Below the pieces are notes generated by a model. It worked only from the letters and a program-made list of their open reading frames with translations. It ran no database searches and had not been told where the DNA came from. From Candidatus Magasanikiibacteriota bacterium (GTDB lineage: Bacteria > Patescibacteriota > Patescibacteriia > Magasanikbacterales > UBA10003): a stretch of DNA of 53,515 bases. Below are positions 7,360-42,370 of the stretch, in pieces. Numbering within the stretch: position 1 is the first letter of the stretch; every line of letters begins with the position of its first letter. The position numbers were made by a program, and so were the translations under genes. The DNA is taken from contig JACROI010000032.1 in the NCBI GenBank assembly GCA_016214465.1, positions 1-53,515 of the forward strand, given 5' to 3'.

Positions 7360-7428
7360 CTTTTTTATGACTTTTTAGCCGTTTTAGTGTATAATAAAGG
7401 CAGAAATAATTTAAATAAAATAAAGTAT

Positions 7429-10143
7429 ATGTCAAAAAAGACATACGCGATTTTTATAACGCTGGCAATGTCGGTTATTTTAGGCGTGGTTCTGCCGGTA
7501 CAAGCGGCCGGGTGGGTGGCGCAGAGTTCGGGGACAACTCAGGCACTGAATGGTGTGAATTTTACTGACTATTGGAATGGTCTGGCTGTTGGGTATAACG
7601 GCACCATTTTAGATTTTATTAGTAATGGCTGGGTAGCACGGAATTCCGGGGTTGAGAACACTCTTCAAGATGTTGACGTGTATGGCGGCAGTATGGCTTT
7701 GGTTGTGGGAGACAATGGTACGATTTTGAAGACGACCAATGGTGGAAGTACTTGGGAGCCACAAAATTCCGGAGTGACTGCTATTTTATATGGGGTGAAA
7801 ATAATAAATAGCAGTATTGCTTATGTTGTTGGTCAGTGGGGCACGATTTTGAAAACCACTAATGGCGGCGCTACTTGGTTGCCATTGACATCAGGGACTT
7901 TCAAAGATTTGCACGATATTACCGTTTCTCCCAATTCAAACTCTGTGCTATGGGCGGTTGGGAAAAATAGCATTGTGCTTTACTCAAATAATGCCGGTTT
8001 TACCTGGAATGAGTATGCGGTATCCACAGATAATAGAGCCTTAGCTGCCGTTCGCAGTCTTTCTTCTTCTATCTTACTGGCGGCCGGCAGTACTGGCAAT
8101 CCTGCGGATTACAAGATTTCACGTAGTATTGATGCCGGCGCCACCTGGAGTCAAGCCGCGAGCGATGTTGCGATAACCGGTTTTGTTGAGGATATTGACA
8201 TGAATGGTTTGTTTGGGTTTGCTGTCGGTTATGGCAGTAACACGTTTAAGACTAGCGACGGTGGATTAAATTGGAGTAAGATTAATATTGCGCCAGGTAA
8301 TAATTTTTATGGTGTAGATGTACTGGGCGCGGCGGCAGTAGCGGTTGGGTATGGCGGACAGATTATGAAATATGATGAAACAGCGCCGAATGCGCCAACT
8401 AATCTTATCAAAACAACCGCTGACAGCATTAATATACCGGAGTTTACATGGAGCGCGGCGAATGATGACTCTTTTGGCACAGGCATTGCCAAATATCAAT
8501 ATTCTTTAGATGGTTCCCTGTCTTATGTCAATGTCGATATTGGCACTTCAGCCACCGTCACCAGCGCTCTTTCTAACGGACCTCACACCATATCTGTTCG
8601 CGCTGTTGATAAGGCGGATAATAATAGTGTTTCGGCGACATTGAGTTTTACCATCGGCGCGCCTGATACTACTCCTCCAACCGTTGGCGCTGTCACGCAA
8701 ACTACTGCCACGGTTGGGTCTGCTCAAACTTTTTCCGCCGCATATTCCGATAACGTTGGCGTAACCAATTGTTGGTTTTATGTCAATGACGCGCTTCAAG
8801 ATGGAAGTATGAATTTAAGTAATGGTTTGGCCAGCAAATTATATACTTTTACATCAGCGGGCAGTTATTCTGTGAAAGTCGCTTGTACTGATGGCGCTAA
8901 TGATGGTTGGGGAACACCAGTTACTGTCGTAGTTTCAGCCGCGGCCGGGCCTGACACTACCGCACCTGACACAATTATAAATAGCAAACCGTCATTGAGT
9001 ACAGTCAGCACCTCGGCAACTTTTGGATTTTTCGCCAACGAATCAGCTACTTTTGAATGTAAATTAGATACTGGAATTTTTGCCGTTTGCACAAGTCCTA
9101 AAATTTATGACGGTTTGTCAGTTGGCAGCCATACTTTTCAAGTGCGCGCGATTGACACCGCCGGCAATGTTGACGCCACTCCGGATTCCTATACTTGGAC
9201 AATAACCACCGCGCCGGCAGTGGCGGCAGACACCGTGGCTCCATCAACACCTTCGGGCTTGCAAAAAATAAGCAATGAGGCAGACGCAACCCCGACTTTT
9301 GTTTGGAATTCCACGAGCGATAATGTTGGCGTAACTTCGTATTTGATTCAAATTGACAACGGCTCTTTGATTGATAATGGCGGATCCACCAGCTATACCA
9401 TTCCCAGTAATTTGAGCAACGGCTCACACTCATTCAAAGTTTTGGCCAAAGACGCGGCTGGCAACACCAGTCTGACCAGTTCTTTCACTTTTACTGTTAA
9501 TGCCAGCGCCGCGGCTGTTTCCTGCCCGTTAAACACGCAAAAGGCCTATAAAAGTTCCGCTTCCAAAGCGGTCTTCTACATCACCGCCGATTGCACCAAG
9601 CGGCCATTTAAAAATGGCCCGTCTTTTTTCACCTATTTTGATTCTTGGTCTGAAGTAATCACCACCACTAAAACAATTCTGGATTCCATTGCCAATGACC
9701 AGCTCGGTTTCACGCCGGCCGGACCAAAATATGATCCAAAATATGGCGCGTTGGTGAAAATTGTCACTGACCAGAAAGTGTATTTGCTTTTGGGCACTGA
9801 AAAATATTGGATTATTTCCGAATCGGTTTTCATTGGCTTGAAATACGATTGGAAATGGATTGAAGATGTGGACGCGGGCTTGCTTGATAAATATTCCATT
9901 GGCTCGGAAATCACCTATACTGACCACCACCCGAATTACACTATTGTTAAATATGCCGGCTTTGCCAATACTTATCGCTTGGAGCCGGATCCTGATGATT
10001 ATTCCAAACAAGTGAAGCGTTGGATTAAAAATGAAAAGATTTTCAATGCCTTGAAATTCCGCTGGGACCGCATTGTCACCGTGCCCAATAATGAGACCTA
10101 CAAAGACGGAAAAGTAATGGATGAAAGTGAAGTGAATCTTTAA
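7429..10143 (+). CDS. Large secreted protein: BNR/Ycf48-like beta-propeller plus Ig-like repeats
   Basis: The signal peptide is MSKKTYAIFITLAMSVILGVVLPVQA. S/T-x-D/N-G-G-x-T/N-W motifs recur (TTNGGSTWEP, TTNGGATWLP, SIDAGATWSQ, TSDGGLNWSK). Repeated about 100-aa segments then follow with DTTPP/DTTAP/DTVAP linkers. The ATG at 7429 is preferred to the ORF-track start. Confidence 0.7.
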   Translation: MSKKTYAIFITLAMSVILGVVLPVQAAGWVAQSSGTTQALNGVNFTDYWNGLAVGYNGTILDFISNGWVARNSGVENTLQDVDVYGGSMALVVGDNGTILKTTNGGSTWEPQNSGVTAILYGVKIINSSIAYVVGQWGTILKTTNGGATWLPLTSGTFKDLHDITVSPNSNSVLWAVGKNSIVLYSNNAGFTWNEYAVSTDNRALAAVRSLSSSILLAAGSTGNPADYKISRSIDAGATWSQAASDVAITGFVEDIDMNGLFGFAVGYGSNTFKTSDGGLNWSKINIAPGNNFYGVDVLGAAAVAVGYGGQIMKYDETAPNAPTNLIKTTADSINIPEFTWSAANDDSFGTGIAKYQYSLDGSLSYVNVDIGTSATVTSALSNGPHTISVRAVDKADNNSVSATLSFTIGAPDTTPPTVGAVTQTTATVGSAQTFSAAYSDNVGVTNCWFYVNDALQDGSMNLSNGLASKLYTFTSAGSYSVKVACTDGANDGWGTPVTVVVSAAAGPDTTAPDTIINSKPSLSTVSTSATFGFFANESATFECKLDTGIFAVCTSPKIYDGLSVGSHTFQVRAIDTAGNVDATPDSYTWTITTAPAVAADTVAPSTPSGLQKISNEADATPTFVWNSTSDNVGVTSYLIQIDNGSLIDNGGSTSYTIPSNLSNGSHSFKVLAKDAAGNTSLTSSFTFTVNASAAAVSCPLNTQKAYKSSASKAVFYITADCTKRPFKNGPSFFTYFDSWSEVITTTKTILDSIANDQLGFTPAGPKYDPKYGALVKIVTDQKVYLLLGTEKYWIISESVFIGLKYDWKWIEDVDAGLLDKYSIGSEITYTDHHPNYTIVKYAGFANTYRLEPDPDDYSKQVKRWIKNEKIFNALKFRWDRIVTVPNNETYKDGKVMDESEVNL

Positions 10144-10175: not shown

Positions 10176-10904
10176 ATGAAAATATATTTGCGAAAGATAT
10201 TAATGGTGGTGATGGTTTTGGGTTTATTCGCGGCTCAAAATGTTTTTGCCGCCTTGCCAAAACCAGCGCCGAAATATCTAAATATCACTACCGGCAATCC
10301 GCAAGTGATGAAAAACGATAAATTTTTTGTCAGTATCAATTTATCCAACGCCAATAAAAATCAAAAGACAGAAATAAAAATGGATGGCCAAGTGATTAAA
10401 ACATGCGGCGTTGTTTATACTTGCAAAGGCACAATAGGTCCTTTTTCTGATGAAGAAATTGGTGAACATTTTTTTTCTTTCTTGATAACTGGTAAAAATG
10501 GAATGACTTCTGAACCGTGGGGCAAATTTGAAGTAGTTGACGGAGATAAAGACCAGTATGGGGATTGGTTTCAGAAAATTCGCATTGTCGTTCCGAGCTA
10601 TCAATATGAAATTGGGAAGAAATTTAACATCCTACTTTACATCACTGATAAAAAATCGGTCTACTATATGGATGCGGCCATTGATAATGAAGAATTAATG
10701 GATATGGGTTTTTTTGACAAAAATCAGAATTTGGGCGCGAAGACTTATTCTTCAGGTCGTTCATTGCCGGCTTTTAAAAAGGCGGATATTGGCGAGCACA
10801 CTTTTTCTTTCACAGTTAAGGCCCCTAATGGCGATTTGATTGAATTAAGTAGCAGTTTTTGGATAGTGGACAAGGGGCAGGTAATGCCGCCGCCGGTTGA
10901 ATAA
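10176..10904 (+). CDS. Secreted hypothetical protein with internal duplication
   Basis: A signal peptide is present (MVVMVLGLFAAQNVFA). Two similar halves each carry an IGEH(F/T)FSF motif. Confidence 0.6.
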   Translation: MKIYLRKILMVVMVLGLFAAQNVFAALPKPAPKYLNITTGNPQVMKNDKFFVSINLSNANKNQKTEIKMDGQVIKTCGVVYTCKGTIGPFSDEEIGEHFFSFLITGKNGMTSEPWGKFEVVDGDKDQYGDWFQKIRIVVPSYQYEIGKKFNILLYITDKKSVYYMDAAIDNEELMDMGFFDKNQNLGAKTYSSGRSLPAFKKADIGEHTFSFTVKAPNGDLIELSSSFWIVDKGQVMPPPVE

Positions 10905-11019: not shown

Positions 11020-13827
11020 ATGTGGGATATTTTTCAAGATTTGAAAAAATCTTGGAGTGATTTTTTGCGCGCGAGCAACGCGAAGAAAAAATCCAGTGAG
11101 TCAGACGAGGATGAACGCGACTCGTTTAACATTTTGTTTGAAAAAGATAATCCAATCGCTGAGCAATTTCGCGCTTCCGCCACTTTTAAAAATCTTCAGC
11201 CGTGTCTGCACGCAATTTATAGCGACCCGGAAGCGCGTTTGGCTTGGGAGCAAGGTATGCAAAGACACAGCTCACAGTGGGAAAATGTTAATGGCAACTG
11301 GATCGAGTATCGCTTAATTGACGGCCGCCGTAAAGCGCTGGAAAAAAATTATGACGAGCTTCAGCAGGAAAAGTTTAATGCGCGTGCGAAACCGGCGCGG
11401 GAACGCCGCCGCACTTTGCAAGATGATTTAGCTGCCAAAGAATTGGAGCTGGCAGTGGTACGCTCAGAACAAGAAGTTCTGCGTCAAAAGTCGCCGGAGC
11501 TGGCCGCGAAAATTCTCGCGTCTGAACTTGAAGCTCGCCGCAAAGAATTACAGACCAAAGACGGGTTTATGTGGTTTCCTTCTCGGCGCGCCATTTTGGA
11601 AACCATTGAGGCACGCATGGCGGATAAAAATACTCTACGGCTTATCACGCTTGAAGGTCAAGCCGGTACTGGCAAAACATCATTTGTCCGCGCTTTGGCC
11701 AATAAATTTACCAAAGAAAACCCGGTTGAGGTAACGGTAAAAAGTAAAACAAAAGTGGACCGCCAACTTTTGGCCGACGAGACCTTGGACAGTAGCCATC
11801 CGGTTGTTTATCGTCCTATTCTTAAAGCCATTACCGGCAAAGCGCGTCCGGAAGACAAACCAACTGGGGACGGCAGGATTGCTTTTGTTGATGAGTTGAA
11901 CAAAGGCGATAATGACGAGATTGGCGACCTGGCCACTGTGCTTGATGGCTTGAAAGTCGGCGGCGTCACTCATTATGAGGGAATGGGAGCCAATCCCAAT
12001 GATAAAGTTTTGCCAAACGCGCTGGTGCTGGCAGCTCAAAATCCGGCTGGTGCCCGTTTTCTCAACCGCACCAAGTTCACTCCGGAGGTTCAGCGTAAAA
12101 TGGACATGATTCAACTTGATTATTTTCCTCAAACCAATGATAATCCTGAGCTATATGAGGCCTTTTTGGTCGCGCTAATGGATCAAGACGGCCGTATTCA
12201 AGCAAAAAAGTCGGAAATGTCTCCAGTCTGGGTCGCTCAATCAATCAAAGATAACAATGGACAAGAAATCGGTGTTCAGGATTCGCTCGTAACCGATGTC
12301 AAACATGGCGGTATGTTATGGCGTGTCGCGGAGATGCTTCATCAGTCATATGAAAATTTGGCCAAACGGAAAAATGCGCTTACCGATTCCAATTCCGACG
12401 CGCATATTCAAGGCCGCGTGCTTCCACCCGGAGATATTATGGCTTGGCTGGCCATGTATCGCAAAGAAGTTAAAAAAGGAATATCGCTTGAGCATTTTAT
12501 TTCCACGAAATTTTTTGATTGGCTTGAATCAAGTTTCACGGCCGACCATGATCAAGAGGACAAACGGCTGTATTTGGAATTGGCGGAAAAATATAGCATA
12601 ATACAAAAAACAGCCGCCGGTGAATATCAGGCAATGCCTCAAAATAAAATTGAAATTGACACGCTTACTCAACGGGATGTAGCTGAGCTTTCTCCGCGCG
12701 TTCCCCGCCATTTTATTCCTAAAGAGAAAGAAGCGCGTCCGTCTGATTACGCGCGCGGCATAATTGATTGGACAGCGCCGGATGGCAGGATTCATCGCCG
12801 TGTTGAATTTCGTTATGAGAAAATCGCGTTGCCGAAATTTTTCCGTTTGCCAGATTCAAAAGACGACGCGCCGATGTATCAAATTGTTGGAACAATAAAG
12901 GAATGTGAAAGTTTGCCGGAATTGATCGGTAAGCCGTATTTTAAAAAAGTTGAAAAAGATACAAATCAAGAATCTCCCACCTCTTTCATTGTCCGCGATT
13001 CACTCAACCCCTATCGCGAAGCCCTCTTGGCCGGCGGCATTGTCGCGTCTGATCCTGCTGTGGCAGAACGCAAGGATATGGCGATTGATTTAATTCAGCT
13101 TTTATCACAAGATCAATCATCATATCAAGCCGCCGGTCTGGCTGAATGGGCTAAATCATTGAATAATCTGGAAAGCCGTTTATCAGCCCTTTCTCCTGAA
13201 AAAAGAAAAATAGTGGAGCAAGAAATCAAAGACGGCTCCATCCCGGTCTTTATGCCAGGCAAAGACATCCAGTTTAGTTTGACCGTGGAGCAACTAACCA
13301 AACAACTCAAACCGCTGTGGATAAAAAACAGCCAAGCTCAAACTGTGGCCGACGGTTATTTGGAATTGGATTATTTTATCAATCTTATTCAAACCAAAGC
13401 CAAAGAATTACTGGTTGATGTGCCGGCTAACCCATATATTCTGCTGACCAAGCCGACTCAAGCTCCTGATGTCCGCACTTGCGACAAAACTCTAGACCTG
13501 CAAAAAGCCGAACTCCAAGCCATCAACAAAGAAAGAAAAAAACAAAACCAAGCCACTGCCTATTCCATGAATCCGCACGAATACGCGGCTCTTCAAGTCC
13601 TGTTCACCAAACGAACCCAATCAGAATCCGCCGTTCCTCTTACCGATTTAACCCCCTTAGACAGCAACACATGGACAAGATTTATTCATCTCCCGTTCTC
13701 TTCTGGCGGCAGTGTTCCGAGCGGTTGCTTCTACCCCGATGACCGCCGGCTTGGGTTCGGCTGGGGCGGTGCCGCGGGCGCGGATGCCGGGGGCGGCTTC
13801 CGCCTCTCGGTGAGGACAGAAATTTAA
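11020..13827 (+). CDS. DGR target protein 1: AAA+ (MoxR/AAA_5-like) ATPase fused to a C-terminal variable ligand-binding domain (VR1)
   Basis: Walker A GQAGTGKTS, Walker B RIAFVDELNKG and sensor-1-like LVLAAQNPAG are present. No signal peptide or TM segment is seen. The last ~290 aa are paralogous to ORF 18346-19281. The C-terminus ...GGSVPSGCFYPDDRRLGFGWGGAAGADAGGGFRLSVRTEI is encoded by VR1. Confidence 0.85.
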   Translation: MWDIFQDLKKSWSDFLRASNAKKKSSESDEDERDSFNILFEKDNPIAEQFRASATFKNLQPCLHAIYSDPEARLAWEQGMQRHSSQWENVNGNWIEYRLIDGRRKALEKNYDELQQEKFNARAKPARERRRTLQDDLAAKELELAVVRSEQEVLRQKSPELAAKILASELEARRKELQTKDGFMWFPSRRAILETIEARMADKNTLRLITLEGQAGTGKTSFVRALANKFTKENPVEVTVKSKTKVDRQLLADETLDSSHPVVYRPILKAITGKARPEDKPTGDGRIAFVDELNKGDNDEIGDLATVLDGLKVGGVTHYEGMGANPNDKVLPNALVLAAQNPAGARFLNRTKFTPEVQRKMDMIQLDYFPQTNDNPELYEAFLVALMDQDGRIQAKKSEMSPVWVAQSIKDNNGQEIGVQDSLVTDVKHGGMLWRVAEMLHQSYENLAKRKNALTDSNSDAHIQGRVLPPGDIMAWLAMYRKEVKKGISLEHFISTKFFDWLESSFTADHDQEDKRLYLELAEKYSIIQKTAAGEYQAMPQNKIEIDTLTQRDVAELSPRVPRHFIPKEKEARPSDYARGIIDWTAPDGRIHRRVEFRYEKIALPKFFRLPDSKDDAPMYQIVGTIKECESLPELIGKPYFKKVEKDTNQESPTSFIVRDSLNPYREALLAGGIVASDPAVAERKDMAIDLIQLLSQDQSSYQAAGLAEWAKSLNNLESRLSALSPEKRKIVEQEIKDGSIPVFMPGKDIQFSLTVEQLTKQLKPLWIKNSQAQTVADGYLELDYFINLIQTKAKELLVDVPANPYILLTKPTQAPDVRTCDKTLDLQKAELQAINKERKKQNQATAYSMNPHEYAALQVLFTKRTQSESAVPLTDLTPLDSNTWTRFIHLPFSSGGSVPSGCFYPDDRRLGFGWGGAAGADAGGGFRLSVRTEI
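12970..13091 (+). repeat. 122-nt near-identical DNA block shared by the two DGR target genes (copy A)
   Basis: It matches 18427-18548 with 3 mismatches by hand alignment. It encodes ESPTSFIVRDSLNPYREALL.GG.VASDPAVAERKDMAIDL. The sequence between this block and the VR is far more diverged between the paralogues. Confidence 0.8.
13697..13816 (+). repeat. DGR variable repeat VR1
   Basis: It aligns to TR 14295-14414. The 8 mismatches are all at TR adenines (VR1 positions 13706, 13712, 13721, 13727, 13732, 13748, 13753, 13762). Confidence 0.92.
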
Positions 13828-13839
13828 GTTTGATAATTG

Positions 13840-13911
13840 AAATGAGCGAGACAAAAGAAAAGTATTTTCTTTTGCGAGCGAATGAAATTATATGGCGAAG
13901 CCATATAATTG
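13840..13911 (+). other. 72-nt insertion in the VR1 3' flank (absent from the VR2 flank) with two perfect hairpins and 7-nt direct repeats
   Basis: The flanks tttgat(a/g)attg and ggattttttaagttttaagttttggttttcgattc are shared with 19271-19330. The insert is bounded by ataattg (13833-13839 and 13905-13911). The hairpins are caaaagaaaa-gta-ttttcttttg (13852-13874) and aattatatggc-gaa-gccatataatt (13886-13910). Confidence 0.7.
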
Positions 13912-14054
13912 GGATTTTTTAAGTTTTAAGTTTTGGTTTTCGATTCACTTTTTTTCCGCTTTTTTTGGTAGGAGCTGAAAAATGGTTAATAGAACCTTGC
14001 GCAATGCGCAAATGGTTTACCAGCTGATGTGACCGACTTGGCAGAGTCCAAAAT

Positions 14055-14132
14055 GGGTCTGTCGCCAAATAGTGTCTTTTGTCATTCCAGCGAAAGCGGG
14101 AATGATAATTTTGCTCATTTGGCGACAGTCCC
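14055..14132. other. Nested palindromic element (possible structured RNA or REP/MITE-like unit) between VR1 and TR
   Basis: The outer stem gggtctgtcgccaaat (14055-14070) pairs with atttggcgacagtccc (14117-14132) with one mismatch. It encloses the inner hairpin tcattcc-agcgaaagcg-ggaatga (14082-14105). Confidence 0.5.
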
Positions 14133-14293
14133 AAAAGATTAAATTTTTTGGAGAGGCCGTCGGCGCATCGTTTTGATGATTTAGTTGTGATTGTTGCATT
14201 GAAAGAAAATGTCCTCACGCGCGCGGCATAATATCGGCAGAGACGCAGTTGCGGCCGGGTTGATGTTTGCCGTGTTTTTCGGAGGCGGCGCCG

Positions 14294-14414
14294 CTCTCTT
14301 CTGACGGCAATGTTCCGAACGGTTACTTCAACCCCGATGACCGCCAGCTTAGGTTCGGCAGGGGCGGTGCCGCGGGCGCGGATGCCGGGGGCGGCTTCCG
14401 CCTCTCGGTGAGGA
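14294..14414 (+). repeat. DGR template repeat (TR)
   Basis: This is the 121-nt master copy of VR1/VR2. It contains 16 adenines, 9 of which are substituted in at least one VR. The 3' 54 nt are GC-rich and identical in all three copies (IMH-like). No functional N-terminal coding context exists upstream. Confidence 0.9.
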
Positions 14415-14423
14415 TGAATTTAC

Positions 14424-14801
14424 TTAATTTGATCCGGCTCGCACGCTGGCCAGCCATCCTCCGGCCATGCGAGAAAGTTCCTCCACCTGGTCGCTCCACG
14501 CAAAAAATTGATGTTCGTTGATAATATTTTCGTCAAGAGCCAGACGAATGAACAATTGTACTGTTTGAATTGTGCCGATAATTTTTAGGATATGAGGTTC
14601 TTTAAGAGGTTGGCGGGCGTAAAGAGCTTGGCCGGTCTGTTCCACAATTGTTAAAATTGCGGTTTGCAGTTTTTCTCCAAGACCATAACGCCATGGTTTT
14701 TTAAAATTTTGCGCGGCGGACGCTATTGGGCGATAAAGAAGATAACTTTTGAATATGAGCGGCGTTGAAGCAAAAATTGAATCCTGCGATGTAGAAGGCA
14801 T
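14424..14801 (-). CDS. avd: Avd-like accessory variability determinant (four-helix-bundle protein)
   Basis: The 125-aa product is YLLYRPIASAAQNFKKPWRYGLGEKLQTAILTIVEQTGQALYA...IQTVQLFIRLALDENIINEHQFFAWSDQVEELSRMAGGWLASV. It follows the helix pattern of Bordetella phage Avd and of 'four helix bundle / 23S rRNA-intervening-sequence' proteins. The start is taken at Met39 of the ORF-track entry. It lies on the opposite strand to TR and RT. Confidence 0.75.
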   Translation of the reverse strand: MPSTSQDSIFASTPLIFKSYLLYRPIASAAQNFKKPWRYGLGEKLQTAILTIVEQTGQALYARQPLKEPHILKIIGTIQTVQLFIRLALDENIINEHQFFAWSDQVEELSRMAGGWLASVRAGSN

Positions 14802-15756
14802 ATCGTTTGAAAAATTAATTACGCGCGAAAATCTCCTGCGGGCCTGGCGCTTATTTTTACGAGGAAAATCCAGACAACCGGCGGTGCGCAGATTTTGGTT
14901 GCACCTTGAGCGCAATTTGACCGCATTATATCATGATTTGATAAATAACGGCTACACGCACGGCGCTTATAAACATTTTACGGTTAATGACACCAAAAGA
15001 CGCGATATTTATGTGGCGCGCGTCAGGGATCGGGTAGTACACCAGCTTTTGGCTTCTTGCATTGAAGAAATTTATCAGCCAATTTTTATTCCGCACTCGT
15101 TCGCGGCGCAGAAAGGAAAGGGCGTAACCGCCGCGCGCCGGTACGCGTTTGATGTTATTTCCAGTATTCAAAAACAAGGCCATGTTTGGATTGGAAAAAT
15201 GGATGTGGAAAAATATTTTGCGAATATTGACCACGGAATCCTGCTTAACTTGTTGAGCCGGCGCGTAAAAGACGCGAAAATTCTAAATCTTTGCGAAATG
15301 ATTATAAATAGTTTTGGCAACGACAGGCATGGTCTGCCGCTTGGCAATCTCACCAGTCAGTGGTTTGCTAATATCTATTTGCATGAACTTGATTGGCACG
15401 CGCGGCATACTCTTGATATCCGTCATTATATGCGGTATAATGATGATGTGCTGATGATGTGCTCCAAAGAAGTTGAAGCGCGCCAGCGTACGGAAGCGAT
15501 TGTAAAATTTGTAAACGAGAAATTGCGTTTAACAATTCCCGAGTGTAAAACGGAGATTGTCAGCGTGCCCGGTAGTTCGGTGGATGTGCTTGGAATTGGC
15601 ACCGATGGATTTAAGCGATGGGTAAGGATAGCAACCGCGAAACGAGCCGCGCGTTTGCTGGATCAAAAATATGAACGACAAACTCCGGAATTTTTGGATA
15701 CGGCCTGTTCATATTTGGGATACGGAATAATCAGCGATGTCGCGTTTTCATTTTAA
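14755..15756 (+). CDS. DGR-type reverse transcriptase
   Basis: RT motifs are RRDIYVARVRDRVVHQLL, KMDVEKYFANIDH, the DGR-diagnostic LPLGNLTSQWFANIYL ([ILV]GxxxSQ) and the catalytic box YMRYNDDVLMM. The size of about 333 aa is typical of DGR RTs. It is adjacent to the TR. Confidence 0.9.
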   Translation: MSGVEAKIESCDVEGISFEKLITRENLLRAWRLFLRGKSRQPAVRRFWLHLERNLTALYHDLINNGYTHGAYKHFTVNDTKRRDIYVARVRDRVVHQLLASCIEEIYQPIFIPHSFAAQKGKGVTAARRYAFDVISSIQKQGHVWIGKMDVEKYFANIDHGILLNLLSRRVKDAKILNLCEMIINSFGNDRHGLPLGNLTSQWFANIYLHELDWHARHTLDIRHYMRYNDDVLMMCSKEVEARQRTEAIVKFVNEKLRLTIPECKTEIVSVPGSSVDVLGIGTDGFKRWVRIATAKRAARLLDQKYERQTPEFLDTACSYLGYGIISDVAFSF

Positions 15757-18340
15757 TAAATATATGCCGCGAAAACATATTTTGCCAAAAAGAGAAACAC
15801 AAAAATTTTTAGAAACCTCGTCGGAAAAGGGAGGCGACAAAACCGCGGCGGAAAAACGGGAACGTTTTGTTTCCGCGCGATTATCATCCGAAACGGATAT
15901 TGAAGCGCAAAAGCGTTGGCAAAAAGAAGACGGCGCGGTGGAGCGGCGCGCAAAAACAATGTTTGATAAAATCGCGGCGGATTTGGCAAGCGGAAAACAA
16001 GAAACAAGCGTATATCGTGAGTTGGGATTGCCTGAGACAGACAGTTTGATTTCAGATTTAACGCGGGCATCGCAAGACGCGGTATTTATTCCGTCTGACG
16101 ACTGGCATCGCGAAGTGGTGGACAAATTGCGGCATTACCGCGCTAAAGATAGCGAAACGGAGACCGATGTGTTGCGATTTTTGGTCTCGCCGGATACACC
16201 GGCGTCAACCCGTCTTGAATTTTTTGAAAAAGAAATACAGGGGCTTTTAGAGTACACTGCGGGAATAGATATGGCGAAGTTGCGAGAAATTGCGCCAACC
16301 GGTTCGAGCAAAGAAACAGAAAAAAAGGAAGACGAAAATATACCGCCATTGGAACTCCCGCCGCCGTCGCAAGATGAAATGAACACCAGTATGGACGAAA
16401 TGCAAGAAAAAAAAGAAGGCGGAACCGGCGGGTATTTTTCAGTGCATCCGTTTTGGGGAGGATATTATCGGGAGCAAATTTATGAGAATCATAAAGGTGG
16501 CGCTCGCTGGGGGCAGGCGGCGCGCGCGTATGGCCGGCCGACGGCGATTGGCGCGTTGAAAGAAGAACGAGTGATGCGTGGTTTGGCTCGTGGCAACGCG
16601 GTTACTGATTTACCAATGCCCTATGGTTTTGCGCCCAATCCAGCGTCATTCAAATCCATCGGAGCGCTGCTTGTTCAGTCAGCCGAGGGTTTGTGGCGTG
16701 TGGTAACAACAGGCGCAGCGCCGATTGATTTTACGGTTATGATTGGGAAAACAGATGTTCACCGTCACGCTGTTTTTTCATCCGAGGCGGAAGAAAAAAA
16801 AATGGCAGTGAATGATACTTGTGCCGGCGTGGAAGCTAAAAAAATGCTTCAATGGCTTGCCGGTTCCACCATTGAAAAAGCCCGCGTGATTAAGCGATTT
16901 GTAAAGGGCTTATTAAGATATTCGCAAGAAAACGCGCTTAACGCGGTGTATGAGAACGACCCTGACGGTTATTTTGCCGCGATTGAAAAGAACAAAAAAG
17001 CTGATTGCGATGTGGCTAATGCGTATTATTTAAATTTGCTTTCACGCGTTGAAATAAAAGCGCGGCTGGCCGTGGGCCATTATGTAAAAATGAAGGACGC
17101 AAATGGATCGGCGGTTATGGGAAGCGGCAGTCGACATGCCTGGAGTGAGGTGTGGGATGAGGCGGGACGGCAATGGATTGTATTTGACGCGACTCCGCCG
17201 GGAGACCCGACTATTGATGAAGAACCACCGGATGAAAAATCCGAAGATGACGCCGGGCCTGGTGATTATGGCGAGCAAGAAGCCCAGCCAATCATCGAAG
17301 AGGAATTTTTGAAATTCAAAGAAAAAATTGCCGAGGCCAAACGAAAAGCCGCGGAAGAAACAGCCACGCCGGAAGAGCGCGCGTCGCGCGAGTTTGCCAA
17401 ATCAGCCGGCTGCACGCCGGAGCAAGCGCGTCGCGTAATGGCTAAAATCGCCGAGGCCAGAAATGTCCGCGACGCGCGCGGACGAGTTGTCCGCGATGGG
17501 TTGGCTGATGAATTTCAGAAAATAGTGGAAACAAATTTTAAGGATGTGCCGGAGTATCGCGGTCCGGTTATGCGCTCGCAAGGGGATGAGATGGATGATA
17601 AAGTAATGATTGGCAAAGAGGTTCGTTTAGGAGTCGCGGATCCTTTGGGATATGCCAGAGAAATTTTACAACAGAAAATAACGCAAGAATATGGAGGAAT
17701 GGATGTGTGGCTGGTGTTTGACCGCAGCGGCTCAATGGATGAAATAGATACGACAACCAATCGTCCAAAAAAAGAAGAACAGCAACTGGCCGGATTTTTA
17801 ACGCTGGACGGCATCAATGCTTTTTCCTATAAAACAGAATCCGCGGCGCGGCAGGATTTATTGATTTCTCCGCTTTCCGTGCGTTCTTCAGTGATTGCTT
17901 TTCAGGGTAATAACGCCGATGCTTTAAAATCTTTAGGCGCGAGCTGGACGCCCAAGGAGCAATATGATATTTGGAGCGGTCTTGAGTCCAATATCGGCGG
18001 CGGCACTCCGGCGCATTTGGGAATTATGAAAGCGCGCGCTGAAATTGAACGAGCGATAGCGCTAGATAAGAAAAATAAAGGTTTTTTAAATGAAAAGAAA
18101 CGGTTGCGGGTGGTGATGGTTTTTATGGATGGAGTTGTGGATAATGAGACAGCATATTTAGCCGAACAAAAAAAGCTGGAGGATTTGGAAGTATTTGTGT
18201 CAAGCTGGGGCATGACTGAATCCGCGCGCCAAGTTGATGCTTATTCCGAAGGGCACTGCGTGCCATCAGCGAGAGATATGATTGAACCGGTGGCCAAGCA
18301 TATTGTTGCCAAAGCTCAATTATTAAAATTAAAACAATAA
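15737..18340 (+). CDS. Transglutaminase-like cysteine protease/cross-linking domain plus vWA (MIDAS) domain protein
   Basis: The TGase core is KKADCDVANAYYLNLLSRVEIKARLAVGHY ... SRHAWSEVWDEAGRQWIVFDATP (Cys-His-Asp). The vWA MIDAS motif is DVWLVFDRSGSMDE, followed later by VVMVFMDGVVDNE. There are acidic low-complexity linkers and no signal peptide. The start overlaps the RT stop; an alternative ATG lies at 15764. Confidence 0.8.
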   Translation: MSRFHFNKYMPRKHILPKRETQKFLETSSEKGGDKTAAEKRERFVSARLSSETDIEAQKRWQKEDGAVERRAKTMFDKIAADLASGKQETSVYRELGLPETDSLISDLTRASQDAVFIPSDDWHREVVDKLRHYRAKDSETETDVLRFLVSPDTPASTRLEFFEKEIQGLLEYTAGIDMAKLREIAPTGSSKETEKKEDENIPPLELPPPSQDEMNTSMDEMQEKKEGGTGGYFSVHPFWGGYYREQIYENHKGGARWGQAARAYGRPTAIGALKEERVMRGLARGNAVTDLPMPYGFAPNPASFKSIGALLVQSAEGLWRVVTTGAAPIDFTVMIGKTDVHRHAVFSSEAEEKKMAVNDTCAGVEAKKMLQWLAGSTIEKARVIKRFVKGLLRYSQENALNAVYENDPDGYFAAIEKNKKADCDVANAYYLNLLSRVEIKARLAVGHYVKMKDANGSAVMGSGSRHAWSEVWDEAGRQWIVFDATPPGDPTIDEEPPDEKSEDDAGPGDYGEQEAQPIIEEEFLKFKEKIAEAKRKAAEETATPEERASREFAKSAGCTPEQARRVMAKIAEARNVRDARGRVVRDGLADEFQKIVETNFKDVPEYRGPVMRSQGDEMDDKVMIGKEVRLGVADPLGYAREILQQKITQEYGGMDVWLVFDRSGSMDEIDTTTNRPKKEEQQLAGFLTLDGINAFSYKTESAARQDLLISPLSVRSSVIAFQGNNADALKSLGASWTPKEQYDIWSGLESNIGGGTPAHLGIMKARAEIERAIALDKKNKGFLNEKKRLRVVMVFMDGVVDNETAYLAEQKKLEDLEVFVSSWGMTESARQVDAYSEGHCVPSARDMIEPVAKHIVAKAQLLKLKQ

Positions 18341-18345
18341 TTTCT

Positions 18346-19281
18346 ATGCCCCCCCGCGACCACGGTCCAACTTATCCCGAATACATCATCGCTTCTTTTG
18401 AAGATATGGAAGAGGTTCATCCTCCTGAATCTCCCACCTCTTTCATTGTCCGCGACTCACTCAACCCCTATCGCGAAGCCCTCTTGGTCGGCGGCGTTGT
18501 CGCGTCTGATCCTGCTGTGGCAGAACGCAAGGATATGGCGATTGATTTGGATAAAATTCTGGAAAGTGACATTGTTTCTTACCGAGCTTCCAATCTTTTG
18601 CGCTGGGCCTCTGCCTTGGAATCAGTCAAAGGCGATCTCCGTCTGACTCCTGAAAAACGCGCCATTATTGAGCAGGAAGTTAAGGAAGGAGCCATTATTA
18701 TCTTTATGCCAGGCCGCGCCACTCAACTTGAAACCACTGTTGATGAATACCAACAACTGCGACCAAAATGGATAAAAGACAGTCAACCTCAAACCCTTGA
18801 TGATACCTATATTTGGGACCATCTCGCCTCTCTTATTTCCAACAAAGATCAATCCCTGGTCCAAGCTGTGCCTGTTCGTCCATATTTTATGCTTATCAAA
18901 CCAACTGCCACAGTAGAGCCGCGCACCGTCAGTAAAACAGTAGACCTACAAAAACAAGAACTTGTCAAAATCAACCAAGAACGAAAAACGGCCGGCCTCG
19001 CTCCTGCGCAAGTTGTAAATCCGGCTGAATACGCCGCTTTTATGCAACTGGCCACAGAGCGCGTCCAACAGTTATCCTCGCAACCTCTTAACAATCTCAC
19101 CCCGCCTGATGATGTGAATGTTTCATACAACAGTTTTATCAATCTCCCTCTCTCTTCTGGCGGCAATGTTCCGCGCGGTTACTTCTACCCCGATGACCGC
19201 CGGCTTAGGTTCGGCTGGGGCGGTGCCGCGGGCGCGGATGCCGGGGGCGGCTTCCGCCTCTCGGTGAGGACAGAAATTTAA
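18346..19281 (+). CDS. DGR target protein 2: stand-alone paralogue of the target-1 C-terminal domain (VR2)
   Basis: It aligns along its whole length to the last ~290 aa of ORF 11020-13827. The C-terminus ...GGNVPRGYFYPDDRRLRFGWGGAAGADAGGGFRLSVRTEI is encoded by VR2. Confidence 0.85.
   Translation: MPPRDHGPTYPEYIIASFEDMEEVHPPESPTSFIVRDSLNPYREALLVGGVVASDPAVAERKDMAIDLDKILESDIVSYRASNLLRWASALESVKGDLRLTPEKRAIIEQEVKEGAIIIFMPGRATQLETTVDEYQQLRPKWIKDSQPQTLDDTYIWDHLASLISNKDQSLVQAVPVRPYFMLIKPTATVEPRTVSKTVDLQKQELVKINQERKTAGLAPAQVVNPAEYAAFMQLATERVQQLSSQPLNNLTPPDDVNVSYNSFINLPLSSGGNVPRGYFYPDDRRLRFGWGGAAGADAGGGFRLSVRTEI
18427..18548 (+). repeat. 122-nt near-identical DNA block shared by the two DGR target genes (copy B)
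   Basis: See copy A (12970-13091). Confidence 0.8.
19150..19270 (+). repeat. DGR variable repeat VR2
   Basis: It aligns to TR 14294-14414. The 6 mismatches are all at TR adenines (TR 14304, 14318, 14319, 14330, 14346, 14360). Confidence 0.92.
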
Positions 19282-19335
19282 GTTTGATGATTGGGATTTT
19301 TTAAGTTTTAAGTTTTGGTTTTCGATTCGGATTTG

Positions 19336-19364
19336 TTGCCAGGAATTATAAGTTGTGATAATAT
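19336..19364 (+). promoter_or_regulatory. Sigma70-like promoter TTGCCA-17-TAATAT
   Basis: ttgcca (19336-19341), a 17-nt spacer, then taatat (19359-19364) preceded by TG. Confidence 0.35.
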
Positions 19365-19390: not shown

Positions 19391-19735
19391 ATGGATAAAC
19401 AAACAAAAAAAGAGTTTGAAAATTTGGTATGGATTATTAAGGAGAGTTTTGATGCAATAGAAATTAGATTCAATGGTTTGGAGAAGAGATTTGACGGCCT
19501 GGAAATTAGATTCAATGGTTTGGAGAAGAGATTTGATAGATTGGAAGATAAAGTAGACAACGGTTTTATTTTTGTTAATCAAGAATTGGTTGACATCAAG
19601 GAAAGAATCAGCCGATTGGAAAAAAGAACCATTGAAGATTCTGACGCGCAAGCAGAGGAAATTTTGAAACTTAAAAAAAGAATTGATTGGTTGGAAAAGC
19701 AATTTAAACGAATTCAACCGGCGTTTGCGCATTAA
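19391..19735 (+). CDS. Small coiled-coil protein with 14-aa tandem repeat
   Basis: Heptad-like repeats EIRFNGLEKRFDGL occur twice, followed by LEDKV...RISRLEKR...RIDWLEKQFKR. Confidence 0.6.
   Translation: MDKQTKKEFENLVWIIKESFDAIEIRFNGLEKRFDGLEIRFNGLEKRFDRLEDKVDNGFIFVNQELVDIKERISRLEKRTIEDSDAQAEEILKLKKRIDWLEKQFKRIQPAFAH
19460..19543 (+). repeat. 42-bp tandem direct repeat (2 copies) inside the coiled-coil CDS
   Basis: gaaattagattcaatggtttggagaagagatttga occurs at 19460 and 19502. The first 35 nt of each unit are identical. Confidence 0.85.
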
Positions 19736-40075: not shown

Positions 40076-42370
40076 ATGAAAAAAGAAGATTTTAAAATAC
40101 AAGGAATGCATTGCGCCAGTTGCGCCACCAATATTGAGAACCTTTCAAAAACCCTACCAGGAGTAAAATCGGTGATTGTTGATTATGCAACGCAAAAAGG
40201 AGTTGTTTCTTTTGACGAAAACATTACAACTGTTGCAGCAATCGGGAAAAGCATCACTGATGCGTTGGGATATAAGATTACCTCCGTAGTGGAAAGAAAT
40301 TTGGAAGAAGAAAATCGTTCCTATCAAAAAGAAATTAAACAGCAAAAAAATTACACAATTTTCTCTTGGCTTGTGGCCATTCCGATTATGCTTGGAACGT
40401 TTCAAGAATATTGGATTTTGAGTTCATTTGTGCCGGTATTTTTAGCAAATAGTTATGTATTATGGCTATTAACTACGCCTTTAATGCTTGGGCCCGGACG
40501 GCAATTTTTTATCGGCACTTATCGCGGATTGAAGCATGGTTTTACAGATATGAATCTTTTGGTTTCCACAGGCACTGGCGCGGCCTATCTGCTTGGTGTA
40601 GTTAATACACTTTTCCCCAACCTTGGCTTTGGTGGCAGTGAAGTGGCCTTTTTCGAAACTGCAGCTCTTTTGATCGCTTTTCTTGTTTTAGGGCGATATC
40701 TTGAAGTTTTAACCAGAGGAAAGGCATCCGAAGCAATTAGAAAATTAATGGGATTAAAGGTAAAAATTGCCAGAGTAATTCGAAATGAAGTTGAACAAGA
40801 AATTTCCATAGAAGAAATTATCGTTGGCGATTTGATTGTGGTGAAGCCGGGGGAAAAATTTCCGGTGGATGGCGTTATTCGATTCGGTTATTCGGCGGTG
40901 GACGAATCCATGATTACAGGAGAGAGTATCCCGGTTGAAAAAAAAGAAAACGACACGATTATCGGCGCCACCATCAATTTAACTGGCCTTATTAAATTTG
41001 AGGCGACAAAAATTGGGAAAGACACGATGCTTTCTCAAATTATTAAATTTATTGAAGACGCCCAGTTGGCTAAACCAAAAATTCAAAAATTAGCCGATAA
41101 AGTTTCCGGCAATTTTATTTTAATTATTCATATTTTAGCTCTTTTTGTCTTTTTATTTTGGTTTTTTGTCGGATATGATATTTTCTTTACACCAGGAAGT
41201 CAATTTTTGCTTTCCAGCATTTCTTTGTCTTCGGTGCCAATTTCAGTTTTTGCCGTATTACTGAGCATAACGGTATTGATTATTTCCTGTCCTTGCGCCG
41301 TAGGATTAGCCACTCCAAGCGCTATTGCGGCCGGCACGGCTAAGGGAGCGGAATATGGGATTTTAATAAAAGGAGGGGATGCCTTGGAGCGCGCCTCAAA
41401 AGTTAATACAGTGGTTTTGGATAAAACTGGAACTTTAACTAAAGGTAAACCTGCGGTAACGGACATCCTGAATGTCGGATCATTGGATTCCAATCAAATA
41501 TTACAGATAGCCGCTTCAGCTGAAAAAGGTTCCGAACATCCTTTGGGCGAAGCCATGGTCAAAAACGCGCTAGAAAAAAATCTTGTCCTTAGTCCGATAG
41601 ACCATTTCCAAGCCATTCCCGGTCATGGCATTGAAGTGATAATTGACGGAAAGAAAATTTATTTGGGTAATCGCCAATTAATGAGTATTCAAAAAATAAC
41701 CATAAGTGATTTTGTTGAAGAGAAGATGCAAAAGCTTGAAGAAGACGGCAAAACGGCAATGATTTTGGCAGTAGATGGAACAATTGAAGGATTGATTGCC
41801 GTGGCTGACACATTAAAAGAGAATTCAGCTGCAGCAGTTTCTGCTTTGCAAAAAATGGATTTTGAAGTGTTGATGATCACAGGCGATAATTGGCGCACTG
41901 CGGAAGCCATTGCCAAACAGATAGGCATTCAAAATGTGCTAGCTGGAGTGTTGCCTGAAAATAAAGCGTTAGAGGTAAAAAAATTACAAGAACAAGGCAA
42001 AGTAGTAGCAATGGTTGGTGATGGCATTAATGATGCGCCGGCTTTAACGCAAGCGGATGTCGGCATTGCGATTGGAAGTGGCTCTGATATTGCCAAAGAA
42101 GCTGGACAGATAGTATTGGTGAAAGAAGATTTAAGAGACATCATCAATGCGTTTGAATTAAGCAAAAAAACGATGAGGAAGATAAAAGAAAATCTTTTTT
42201 GGGCGTTCATATATAATGCGCTTGGGGTGCCTTTGGCTGCTGGTGTATTATATCCGTGGTTTAAGTTCTTAGTCAGTCCGGAATTGGCGGCTTTGTTTAT
42301 GGCCTTTAGTTCTGTTTCGGTAACGTTAAATACACTGCTTTTAAAACGGTATAAATTTAAATATATATGA
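40076..42370 (+). CDS. copA: Copper(I)-translocating P1B-type ATPase
   Basis: HMA domain [14 protein letters not shown] motif [12 protein letters not shown] (CPC), phosphorylation site DKTGTLT, hinge GDGINDAP, and MxxSS in the last TM. Confidence 0.88.

Follow-up and report, generated by a model that had tools for sequence, protein, structure and literature searches.

The locus described here is, with a probability of about 0.9, a complete diversity-generating retroelement (DGR) in which both variable repeats (VR1 and VR2) have been rewritten. It is located on the chromosome of a Candidatus Magasanikbacteria MAG and comprises one template repeat (TR), two VRs, a reverse transcriptase (RT) and Avd; what it rewrites is the end of an AAA-ATPase protein and that of a short paralogue. 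This set of components had already been proposed in a preliminary description of the window (the whole stretch of DNA analysed, 53,515 nt) and is borne out by the repeat alignment and by RT and Avd profile matches. The tests run on TR/VR, RT and Avd all support this reading, and the element bears the signature of mutagenic retrohoming. The element is a new example of a known system, not a new kind, and its layout is standard for Candidate Phyla Radiation (CPR) bacteria: the gene order TR-(avd)-RT corresponds to the "B3" architecture as defined in PMC5758913, a layout that Wu et al. 2018 (PMC5758913) found for 90% of the DGRs in CPR.

Template repeat and variable repeats

Repeat boundaries were determined through repeat finding, MAFFT and base-by-base comparison. 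The TR (14295-14414, + strand, 120 nt) contains 16 adenines; a small hairpin (14378-14401) is located in its GC-rich final 54 nt. VR1 (13697-13816, + strand) covers codons 893-932 of target 1 and VR2 (19151-19270, + strand) codons 269-308 of target 2, with the stop codon of each target ORF found 11 nt past the VR end. VR1 differs from the TR at eight positions (14304, 14310, 14319, 14325, 14330, 14346, 14351 and 14360) and VR2 at six (14304, 14318, 14319, 14330, 14346 and 14360), all of these being TR adenines: the distinct variable columns fall on adenines in 9/9 cases (hypergeometric P 1.1e-9, given 16 A in 120 nt), and all 104 non-A positions of the TR are the same in the three copies. The two VRs differ from each other at four positions, again exclusively TR adenines (P 2e-4). 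In five of the six VR2 substitutions the new base matches that in VR1 (P about 0.004-0.01 under independence); rather than two free draws, this points to selection, a shared history or cross-talk during assembly. As the paralogues are only ~55-60% identical outside of the VRs, the TR must have overwritten the VRs after the duplication.

The 54-nt 3' block is present in exactly three exact copies in the window, compared to zero expected, and none of its three adenines is changed in either VR, versus 14/26 upstream; this fits an IMH-like protected zone. From 14415 onward the TR departs from the VRs, whilst at the other end 4 nt of extra homology (14291-14294) exhibit non-A mismatches (14294 C>T in VR1, 14293 G>T in VR2), marking the 5' edge of the repeat there. 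In the VR reading frame the TR encodes ...SSDGNVPNGYFNPDDRQLRFGRGG..., with the 15 adenines that lie within complete codons all at codon position 1 or 2; a stop codon cannot be reached by A-mutagenesis of the TR codons. The adenine content is relatively low, with the 16 adenines affording at most 3.7e8 protein variants.

Most of what the preliminary description stated about the repeats was reproduced: the VR1 coordinates, the mismatch counts (eight and six, all 14 on TR adenines), the reading frame of the TR, the identity of the 3' 54 nt in three copies and the divergence right after the repeat. Its 121-nt TR (14294-14414) and its VR2 (19150-19270) keep their 3' ends and now start at 14295 and 19151 (120 nt), and its statement that no TR C, G or T is mismatched holds for 14295-14414 (104/104).

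Reverse transcriptase and Avd

The RT (14755..15756, + strand, 333 aa) exhibits LPLGNLTSQWFANIYL, a YNDD box and a match to Pfam RVT_1 (3.3e-17); exactly the same protein is found on a Logan contig, and many of its 815 homologues are named from CPR MAGs. Its best match in the PDB is the DGR RT of the Bordetella phage, bRT (8ub7, 3.1e-26), with group II intron RTs next (2e-20). Together with the DGR-type LGxxxSQ motif and RVT_1, this match upholds the earlier assignment of a ~333-aa DGR-type RT. The YNDD box, which had been thought to look unusual, is instead typical of this subclade: it is carried by most of the listed subclade RTs (identity 46% or more), two having YTDD, and distant CPR RTs mostly have YADD.

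The avd accessory gene is encoded on the minus strand (14424..14798; ATG 14798, stop codon 14426-14424; 124 residues plus the start Met), a strand that had gone unnoted when it was first identified as a 125-aa Avd-like ORF. The identification itself is supported by matches to Pfam bAvd (7.2e-9, profile positions 15-106 of 107) and NCBIfam DivGenRetAVD (4.8e-11, positions 3-103 of 104), both scoring under the curated cut-offs though near full length. The gene overlaps the RT 5' end by 44 nt with its own 5' end and converges on the TR 3' end, leaving a gap of 9 nt; in L006, L007, L008, L009 and L015 an avd that is 57-64% identical occupies the same place and orientation.

Target genes and the transglutaminase-vWA gene

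Target gene 1 (11020..13827, + strand, 935 aa) encodes an AAA_5 (MoxR/dynein-like) ATPase followed by a C-terminal variable module of ~290 aa; in NCBI it has a TTG start at codon 8 (928 aa, MBI5022994.1), and it is the same as P0129 except for the start. The ATPase (Pfam AAA_5 6.9e-9, residues 211-346) displays Walker A (GQAGTGKT at 213), Walker B (IAFVDE at 287) and an AAQNP sensor motif. Target gene 2 (18346..19281, + strand, 311 aa; AF2 model pLDDT 94.4) is a stand-alone paralogue of the target 1 C-terminal module (58% amino acid identity), meaning that the variable module exists in two forms, one fused to the ATPase and one free-standing. The confident model of the ~290-aa module (pLDDT 94) matched no known fold, the C-type lectin fold expected of DGR targets included, and a Pfam-recognisable variable domain was not detected in the target. 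The diversified residues occupy alternating positions of a predicted beta-hairpin within the module. This cargo had been called unusual; ATPase-fused targets are, however, reported as the commonest CPR target architecture (Dore et al. 2024, PMC10907252, with reference to Paul et al. 2017), and UVR4 targets are tied to Midasin-type AAA domains (Wu et al. 2018, PMC5758913).

Between the TR and VR2 there are three accessory genes rather than the two described before, the omitted one being an 867-aa ORF (15737..18340, + strand) whose first 20 nt overlap the end of the RT gene. This ORF contains a transglutaminase domain (Transglut_core 9e-8) with an intact Cys-His-Asp set and a vWA domain (VWA_2 0.031, nearly the whole profile covered) with the MIDAS motif DRSGSM...GGGT...MDG, and its product is the probable partner of the AAA target. 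The RT, transglutaminase-vWA and target-2 genes abut or overlap. Hydrophobic segments are absent from target 1, target 2 and the transglutaminase-vWA protein, and these proteins as well as those of the DGR look cytoplasmic.

Flanking and non-coding regions

The post-VR1 flank (13817..13839, + strand), which holds the last three codons and the stop, is the same as 19271-19293 in 22/23 nt. It is common to both targets, the gene bodies of which are ~55-60% identical, and is absent after the TR; it is a candidate for target-versus-donor discrimination (the IMH versus IMH* difference). After VR1 only, there follows a 72-nt insertion (13840..13911, + strand) with ATAATTG repeats at its borders and two perfect hairpins (13852-13874 and 13886-13910; DNA fold z = -5.5), the latter being terminator-like in that a T run follows. 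The motif GAGCGAGA-hairpin-CGAGC has two more copies in the relative L009, with a different stem. The post-VR2 flank (19271..19337, + strand) is collinear with 13817-13839 plus 13905-13955 and contains no hairpin (z = -0.8).

The region upstream of the TR (13923..14290, + strand) is 85-91% identical to L011, compared to 80% for the target CDS, and an 85-nt indel in L011 indicates that it is non-coding; we infer that the TR transcript probably has its promoter and its 5' portion here. RNA structure in this region and around the TR did not exceed chance (predicted TR-flanking RNA, z = -0.6).

Conservation of the module in relatives

Seven other lineages, with RTs only about 50% identical, conserve the module AAA_5 target / TR / (avd) / RT / transglutaminase-vWA. 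Amongst the eight other lineages (RT identity about 46-85%), a transglutaminase-vWA gene is found downstream of the RT in seven (L006, L007, L009, L011, L016, L017 and L018), L015 being the sole exception. It follows the RT directly in L006, L007, L017 and L018 and is separated from it by a toxin-antitoxin pair in L016; only its first 43 codons are visible in L011, and in L009 just the VWA half is kept. Upstream, L007, L009, L016, L017 and probably L018 carry an AAA_5-type target, with this side being off the contig in L006 and L011, and AAA_5 is present in all ten long members of the target family. In L007, L009, L015, L016, L017 and L018 (RT about 46-51% identical), a VR is found at the 3' end of a homologous target and the TR just upstream of the minus-strand avd or the avd-RT gap; mismatches fall on TR-side adenines in 13/14, 14/16, 19/20, 14/15, 17/19 and 13/13 cases, respectively.

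Present-day activity and alternative explanations

The reading frames of the RT, avd and the two targets are all intact, with catalytic motifs present, and to judge from sequence the DGR is probably active today. It is unlikely, though less so than the other alternatives, that past homing shaped both VRs and that the element is now immobile with its VRs fixed. Such a relic would be in keeping with the five identical substitutions common to both VRs, with a TR that is adenine-poor relative to L011 and L007, with losses in relatives (the TR 3' end, avd and the RT 5' end in the closest relative, L011; the whole cassette in L012-L014) and with the finding that the protein collection searched held no sequence variants of target 1 or 2. 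Besides the intact genes, however, the complete lack of non-A differences over 104 positions in each of the two VRs, in spite of paralogues at ~55-60%, indicates that the last homing was recent relative to neutral drift; the VR of cassette-less L012, by contrast, exhibits many non-A differences from its relative's TR.

Less probable again is a partial assembly artefact, in which the VRs would be consensus mosaics or swapped through short reads not bridging 120-nt near-identical repeats. An independent Logan assembly of this sequence does break exactly inside the TR (~14385) and inside a 97.5% identical island (~18486), in L011 a target-2-like gene is followed by a downstream region of the VR1 type, and read cross-mapping could account for the shared substitutions. 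Against this, VR1 and VR2 still differ at four positions and are preceded by distinct 5' flanks, a Logan contig matches the 53.5-kb contig collinearly over 4.1 kb (100% protein identity), and the exact VR states are irrelevant to the existence of the element.

The same island (12970..13091, + strand, 122 nt; 97.5% identical to 18427-18548 in target 2, whilst the L011 orthologue is only 77% identical across it) is, on its sequence, a gene-conversion tract between the paralogues and not TR-templated. With the near-identical post-VR flanks, it could hint at plain duplication and gene conversion, the three copies being recombination-maintained remnants that arose without retrohoming. We regard this as highly improbable: it leaves unexplained that all differences lie at TR adenines (P 1e-9), that the third copy is non-coding and beside RT and avd, and that six relatives show the same A-biased pattern, and the recomputed alignment, with no non-A mismatches, contradicts it. 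That the RT stems from another retroelement (group II intron, retron or defence RT) and is unrelated to the repeats can practically be dismissed, since its NCBI name ('group II intron reverse transcriptase domain-containing protein') and an NCBIfam group II match (3e-37, yet far under the cut-off) are outweighed by bRT as best structural-sequence match, the LGxxxSQ motif, the lack of a maturase/endonuclease domain and of Rfam intron or retron RNA, and the adjoining Avd and TR.

Proposed mechanism and role

By analogy with the Bordetella phage element, + strand transcription would pass through the TR and probably onward via antisense avd into the RT, transglutaminase-vWA and target-2 genes. The RT with Avd would then copy the TR RNA to cDNA, misincorporating opposite adenines, and this cDNA would replace the last ~40 codons (before the final three) of the two paralogous genes. 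As the GC-rich 3' 54 nt do not differ between donor and recipient, the distinction between the two probably depends on the next ~23 nt, which are present in both targets and not in the TR.

The ATPase target, the DGR core and the transglutaminase-vWA protein are co-inherited across distant relatives and all lack a signal peptide or membrane segment, which makes an intracellular diversifiable ligand sensor the most likely role. Tentatively, such a sensor might act with an AAA+/vWA remodelling pair and a thiol-peptidase/transglutaminase output, a model drawn from gene linkage and from analogy. The analogue is provided by the DGR-linked vWA-MoxR conflict systems of multicellular bacteria.

Comparison with known systems

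The B3 DGRs of CPR/DPANN (Wu et al. 2018, PMC5758913; Paul et al. 2017, as cited elsewhere) have the same gene order, strands and CPR host, and likewise exhibit a Midasin/AAA-type ATPase target, as in the UVR4 group and the 'CLec fused to AAA ATPase' class (reported to be the most common one in CPR), without a Pfam-recognisable variable domain. Nothing essential is different; additional here are the second, free-standing paralogue target downstream, the YNDD box and the conserved transglutaminase-vWA gene nested after the RT. Nested ORFs are regarded as not conserved (Wu et al. 2018, PMC5758913).

The DGR of Bordetella phage BPP-1 (mtd-avd-TR-brt) is alike in its homologous RT (3e-26), Avd, A-only TR/VR changes, VR at the target 3' end and GC-rich repeat 3' end with unmutated adenines. 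It differs in being phage-borne rather than chromosomal and in its tail-fibre target, as opposed to a cytoplasmic one. Here avd is inverted and downstream of the TR, and hence the spacer RNA (the cDNA primer in BPP-1) would be antisense to avd; TR and VRs are identical to the repeat end and thus lack the internal IMH/IMH* differences of BPP-1; and in place of a GC-rich cruciform there are AT-rich hairpins after VR1 only.

The vWA-MoxR (VMAP) ternary conflict systems of cyanobacteria and gammaproteobacteria (Kaur et al. 2020, PMC7159879; Dore et al. 2024, PMC10907252) are also DGR-linked. No VMAP protein, Trypco or EAD adaptor was found at our locus, the peptidase-like domain (transglutaminase) is here on the vWA protein, and the variable domain is on the ATPase rather than on the vWA protein; their RTs belong to clade 5, compared to a CPR lineage RT in a CPR host here. 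In both, nevertheless, a binding domain diversified by the DGR is linked to a MoxR-like AAA+ ATPase, to a vWA protein and to a domain of peptidase type, with a predicted cytoplasmic location and, as in clade 5A loci, a long and a short target per locus.

Template and variable repeats

A 120-nt sequence was recovered three times on the forward strand by repeat search, MAFFT alignment and base-by-base comparison, which confirms the three copies of the preliminary description: once as a non-coding template repeat (TR, 14295-14414, plus strand) and twice as variable repeats, VR1 (13697-13816, plus strand) at the end of the 935-aa ORF 11020-13827 (target 1) and VR2 (19151-19270, plus strand) at the end of the 311-aa ORF 18346-19281 (target 2), both stopping 11 nt short of the target stop codon. 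Realignment gave eight changes in VR1 and six in VR2, which occupy nine columns, and the earlier claim of adenine-only mismatches stands: all nine are TR adenines (hypergeometric P = 1.1e-9, given 16 adenines in the 120-nt TR), the 104 non-adenine positions are identical across TR, VR1 and VR2, and the four positions at which the VRs differ from each other are again all TR adenines (P 2e-4). Homology to the TR extends for 4 nt on the 5' side (14291-14294), where the first non-adenine mismatches mark the 5' edge of the repeat. Read in the VR frame, the 15 adenines within complete TR codons lie at codon position 1 (six) or 2 (nine) and never at position 3; no stop codon can be reached by adenine substitution, and each VR has access to at most 3.7e8 protein variants. 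ORF 14267-14521 was dismissed as a gene because it is no more than an in-frame reading of the TR.

The GC-rich 3' 54 nt show no difference among the TR and both VRs, and the window contains exactly three copies of this 54-mer where none would be expected. Within it none of six adenine sites is altered (three adenines in two VRs), compared with 14/26 upstream, a pattern that an IMH-like protected zone would give. The copies diverge only from 14415 onwards. Since TR and VR agree up to the very end of the repeat, a distinction between donor (IMH*) and recipient (IMH) would probably have to sit just downstream: here the 23 nt that follow the VRs are shared by both at 22 positions and are absent after the TR. 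Cases with TR and VR identical to the repeat end have been described (Wu et al. 2018, PMC5758913).

Remnants of a plain gene duplication would be an alternative source of such repeats, and target 2 is indeed a paralogue of the final 295 residues of target 1 (58% amino acid identity). At the DNA level, however, the two targets are only ~55-60% identical, except for a 122-nt island and for the VR with ~65 nt downstream of it, whereas VR1 and VR2 match the TR at every non-adenine site; both have thus been overwritten from the TR after the paralogues diverged and, judged from the sequence, the repeats are a product of retrohoming and not a duplication remnant. The 122-nt island (12970-13091 versus 18427-18548) is 97.5% identical between the targets and is unrelated to the TR; as the orthologue in L011, the closest relative, is just 77% identical there, it looks like a local tract of recent gene conversion.

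One caveat concerns INDEPENDENCE: VR2 agrees with VR1 in the substituted base at five of its six changed positions, for which P is ~0.004-0.01 if the draws were independent. At one such site, the TR codon AAC at 14330, relatives also carry an aromatic or histidine residue (Y in L011, F in L007, H in L009, all loci from other genomes), which points to selection behind the shared substitution. A common history of the two VRs is a possible explanation, as is cross-talk during short-read assembly; an independent Logan assembly of the same sequence breaks exactly inside the TR and inside the 97.5% island. VR-variant proteins of either target were not found in protein clusters, where both targets form singleton clusters and the entry P0129 is target 1 itself with another start, and pattern scans of JGI metagenomes gave 0 matches both for the TR with N at all adenines and for a conserved 27-mer.

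Reverse transcriptase and Avd

The RT gene (14755-15756, plus strand) encodes 333 aa that match RVT_1. Its best PDB match is the Bordetella phage DGR RT bRT (8ub7, 3e-26), versus 2e-20 for group II intron RTs. It carries LPLGNLTSQWFANIYL, and the presence of LPLGNLTSQ (LGxxxSQ type, motif 4) together with a YxDD box, here YNDD, would place it in the DGR lineage. The preliminary description had taken YNDD for a peculiarity, which does not hold: among the listed RTs that are at least 46% identical most share YNDD and two have YTDD, while remoter CPR RTs mostly have YADD. Scanning a genome collection with the RT returned only distant DGRs of Clostridia and Treponema (31-38% identity) and none from the source lineage.

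The gene of the accessory variability determinant, avd (14798-14424, minus strand), was identified through Pfam bAvd (7e-9) and NCBIfam DivGenRetAVD (5e-11); the matches span almost the full length of both profiles, yet score below the curated cut-offs. Its orthologues are recorded as PF22296, and relatives at 57-64% identity have the same position and orientation; a PDB sequence search with Avd gave nothing useful. The avd stop lies 9 nt from the 3' end of the TR, and the avd and RT starts overlap head-to-head by 44 nt (14755-14798), a length also found in the related locus L009 (10001-10044): as both N-termini are conserved, the overlap appears to be real. With TR and VRs, RT and Avd all in place, the locus had been interpreted correctly as a complete DGR.

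Layout, setting and cis elements

The order TR (plus), avd (minus), RT (plus) is architecture B3, which was reported to account for 90% of the DGRs of CPR and to be nearly absent elsewhere (Wu et al. 2018, PMC5758913). On this 53,515-nt contig of a Candidatus Magasanikbacteria MAG the neighbouring genes include ArgRS, tRNAs, NusA and YidC, and such housekeeping genes indicate that the element is chromosomal. Directly before target 1, 7387-10143 encodes a 918-aa BNR/Big-domain protein and 10176-10904 a 242-aa protein whose N-terminus is signal-like and for which no family was assigned. Between target 2 and nusA, a 114-aa coiled-coil ORF (19391-19735), for which no family assignment was obtained, contains a 42-nt tandem repeat (19440-19523) encoding (E/K)RFDxxEIRFNGL units. 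Far from the DGR, a 125-nt direct repeat (41976-42100 and 48149-48272, 78% identical) is found between two large ORFs. The minus-strand ORF 13919-14218 was rejected as a gene on account of an 85-nt indel at this place in L011.

Hairpins or cruciforms downstream of the VR are present in about one third of DGRs and are not obligatory. In the present case VR1 is followed by a 72-nt insertion (13840-13911) bounded by ATAATTG and containing two perfect, AT-rich hairpins 36-94 nt past VR1, the second of them terminator-like; downstream of VR2 no hairpins were found. The motif GAGCGAGA-hairpin-CGAGC recurs in L009 with a different stem, after the VR and after the TR (9053-9092, 9550-9589), and the VR1 insertion that carries it could be either a small mobile element or a conserved functional hairpin of the DGR. 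Folding of the putative TR transcript (14225-14600) revealed no structure beyond chance (z = -0.6), and an Rfam scan of the window returned two tRNAs only.

The transglutaminase-vWA gene and the ATPase target

An 867-aa ORF (15737-18340), omitted from the accessory genes of the preliminary description, has a 20-nt overlap with the RT stop and leaves a gap of 5 nt to target 2. Its product combines a transglutaminase-like core, in which the Cys-His-Asp triad is intact, and, at the C-terminus, a vWA domain whose MIDAS motif is complete. The ATPase of target 1 is of the AAA_5 (MoxR/dynein) type, and its Walker A, Walker B and AAQNP motifs are intact. PDB sequence searches with the transglutaminase-vWA protein and with the N-terminal 647 aa of target 1 gave nothing useful, and PADLOC and NCBIfam found no match for the targets or the vWA protein. 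Neither target nor the vWA protein exhibits a hydrophobic segment or a signal-like N-terminus, and hence the system is predicted to be cytoplasmic.

Loci with RTs ~46-85% identical were compared from eight other lineages, and seven of these have a transglutaminase-vWA gene downstream of the RT: L006, L007 (also seen as L008), L009 (also as L010), L011, L016, L017 and L018. The L009 partner is vWA only, its transglutaminase core being replaced, and the L011 contig holds just the first 43 codons of the gene. In L016 a DUF6922/AbiEii toxin-antitoxin pair (9074-9967) has been inserted after the RT and separates it from the transglutaminase-vWA gene. The exception, L015, lacks a vWA gene, and its target is short. 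An AAA_5-type target of ~950-1020 aa stands upstream of the TR in L007, L009, L016 and L017; in L018 a 1000-aa gene with no Pfam match on record takes the place of target 1 and carries the VR, and in L006 and L011 the side upstream of the TR is off the contig. Both repeats are present in L007, L009, L015, L016, L017 and L018, with the VR ending the target gene and the TR upstream of avd and RT, and mismatches fall on TR-side adenines at 13/14, 14/16, 19/20, 14/15, 17/19 and 13/13 positions, respectively. L007 (14954-18403) and L017 (11947-15734) each contain a second, unrelated DGR with its own RT, bAvd, TR and ~630-660-aa target, 4-7 kb from the AAA_5-type one.

The cassette itself varies within this group. 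In L011, whose RT is 85% identical, a deletion (1254-1340), with GCGGGC as the microhomology at the junction, fuses TR nt ~80 to RT codon ~28; avd is gone, as are the 3' end of the TR and the 5' end of the RT with its start, and as read from this deletion, the cassette is decayed. L012-L014 represent the L015 chromosomal locus lacking the avd/TR/RT cassette: at least three samples share one and the same cassette-less target, whose former VR departs from the TR of L015 at positions other than adenine as well. Together, the L011 deletion and the cassette-less loci show that the cassette is gained, lost and decays within the group.

The variable module

An exhaustive HMMER search assigned 97 cluster representatives at 50% identity to the family of the variable module, which splits into short (~280-460 aa) and long (~910-1060 aa) forms; AAA_5 was present in each of the ten long forms tested. 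The part of the module that TR adenines encode is hypervariable among family members and is flanked by the conserved motifs TRFIxLPxSxxGxVP and GFRLxVRVE. None of 62 family members matched a Pfam family relevant to DGR targets, the family profile had no match among PDB sequences, and hhalign against the FGE-sulfatase-type DGR targets of two other loci (L002, L003) gave a probability of 0.1. AlphaFold2 modelled target 2 with a pLDDT of 94.4 over its 311 aa and 94.8 over the last 140 residues, and places the variable residues at alternating positions on two C-terminal beta-strands. Three Foldseek searches against PDB and BFVD found no match (best E above 1). The modelled element order beta-alpha-alpha-beta-beta-beta-beta and the terminal GFRxxxR recall the C-type lectin fold, and the module may possibly be a very divergent member of it; given this order and the GFR motif, we take the fold as unassigned and not as proven new.

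We give roughly one chance in five to the following reading: that the ~290-aa module, with about 100 clusters at 50% identity and either free-standing or fused to AAA_5, represents a third type of scaffold for DGR display besides C-type lectin and Ig, and that inside CPR cells it acts as the sensor of an AAA+/vWA/transglutaminase system, not described before, which serves in conflict or quality control and has evolved together with its own DGR.

Comparison with known systems

As a DGR the locus adds little, since the abundance of exactly this layout, ATPase-fused targets included, is already established for CPR. What makes it valuable is a clean, fully assembled, 53-kb chromosomal context in which one TR serves two targets of different architecture, and the main points are the conserved AAA/vWA/transglutaminase linkage, the cytoplasmic prediction and a confidently modelled variable scaffold without a fold match. 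The locus makes three questions testable: whether this target type, the commonest among CPR DGRs, operates in the cytoplasm together with a vWA-transglutaminase partner of its own, which if true would make it an adaptive sensor and not an adhesin; which fold bears the variable residues; and how a DGR works with the RNA downstream of its TR antisense to avd.

The literature searched, which did not extend to Paul et al. 2017, contained no description of a conserved transglutaminase-vWA partner in CPR DGRs, and we do not claim novelty for it. UVR4 targets have been matched to Midasin AAA domains (Wu et al. 2018, PMC5758913), and Dore et al. 2024 (PMC10907252), with reference to Paul et al., name the ATPase-fused target as the commonest CPR architecture and suggest that the ATPase relays a signal which the C-terminus senses. 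DGRs are also embedded in the vWA-MoxR (VMAP) ternary conflict systems of multicellular bacteria, with the variable domain on the vWA protein (Kaur et al. 2020, PMC7159879; Dore et al. 2024, PMC10907252). Members of that class have three components, a MoxR ATPase, a VMAP protein and a vWA protein that bears the DGR-diversified FGS domain. The present locus, with its AAA_5 ATPase and vWA protein, may work in a similar manner but lies outside the class: there is no third, VMAP-like gene, and the variable domain is carried by the ATPase.
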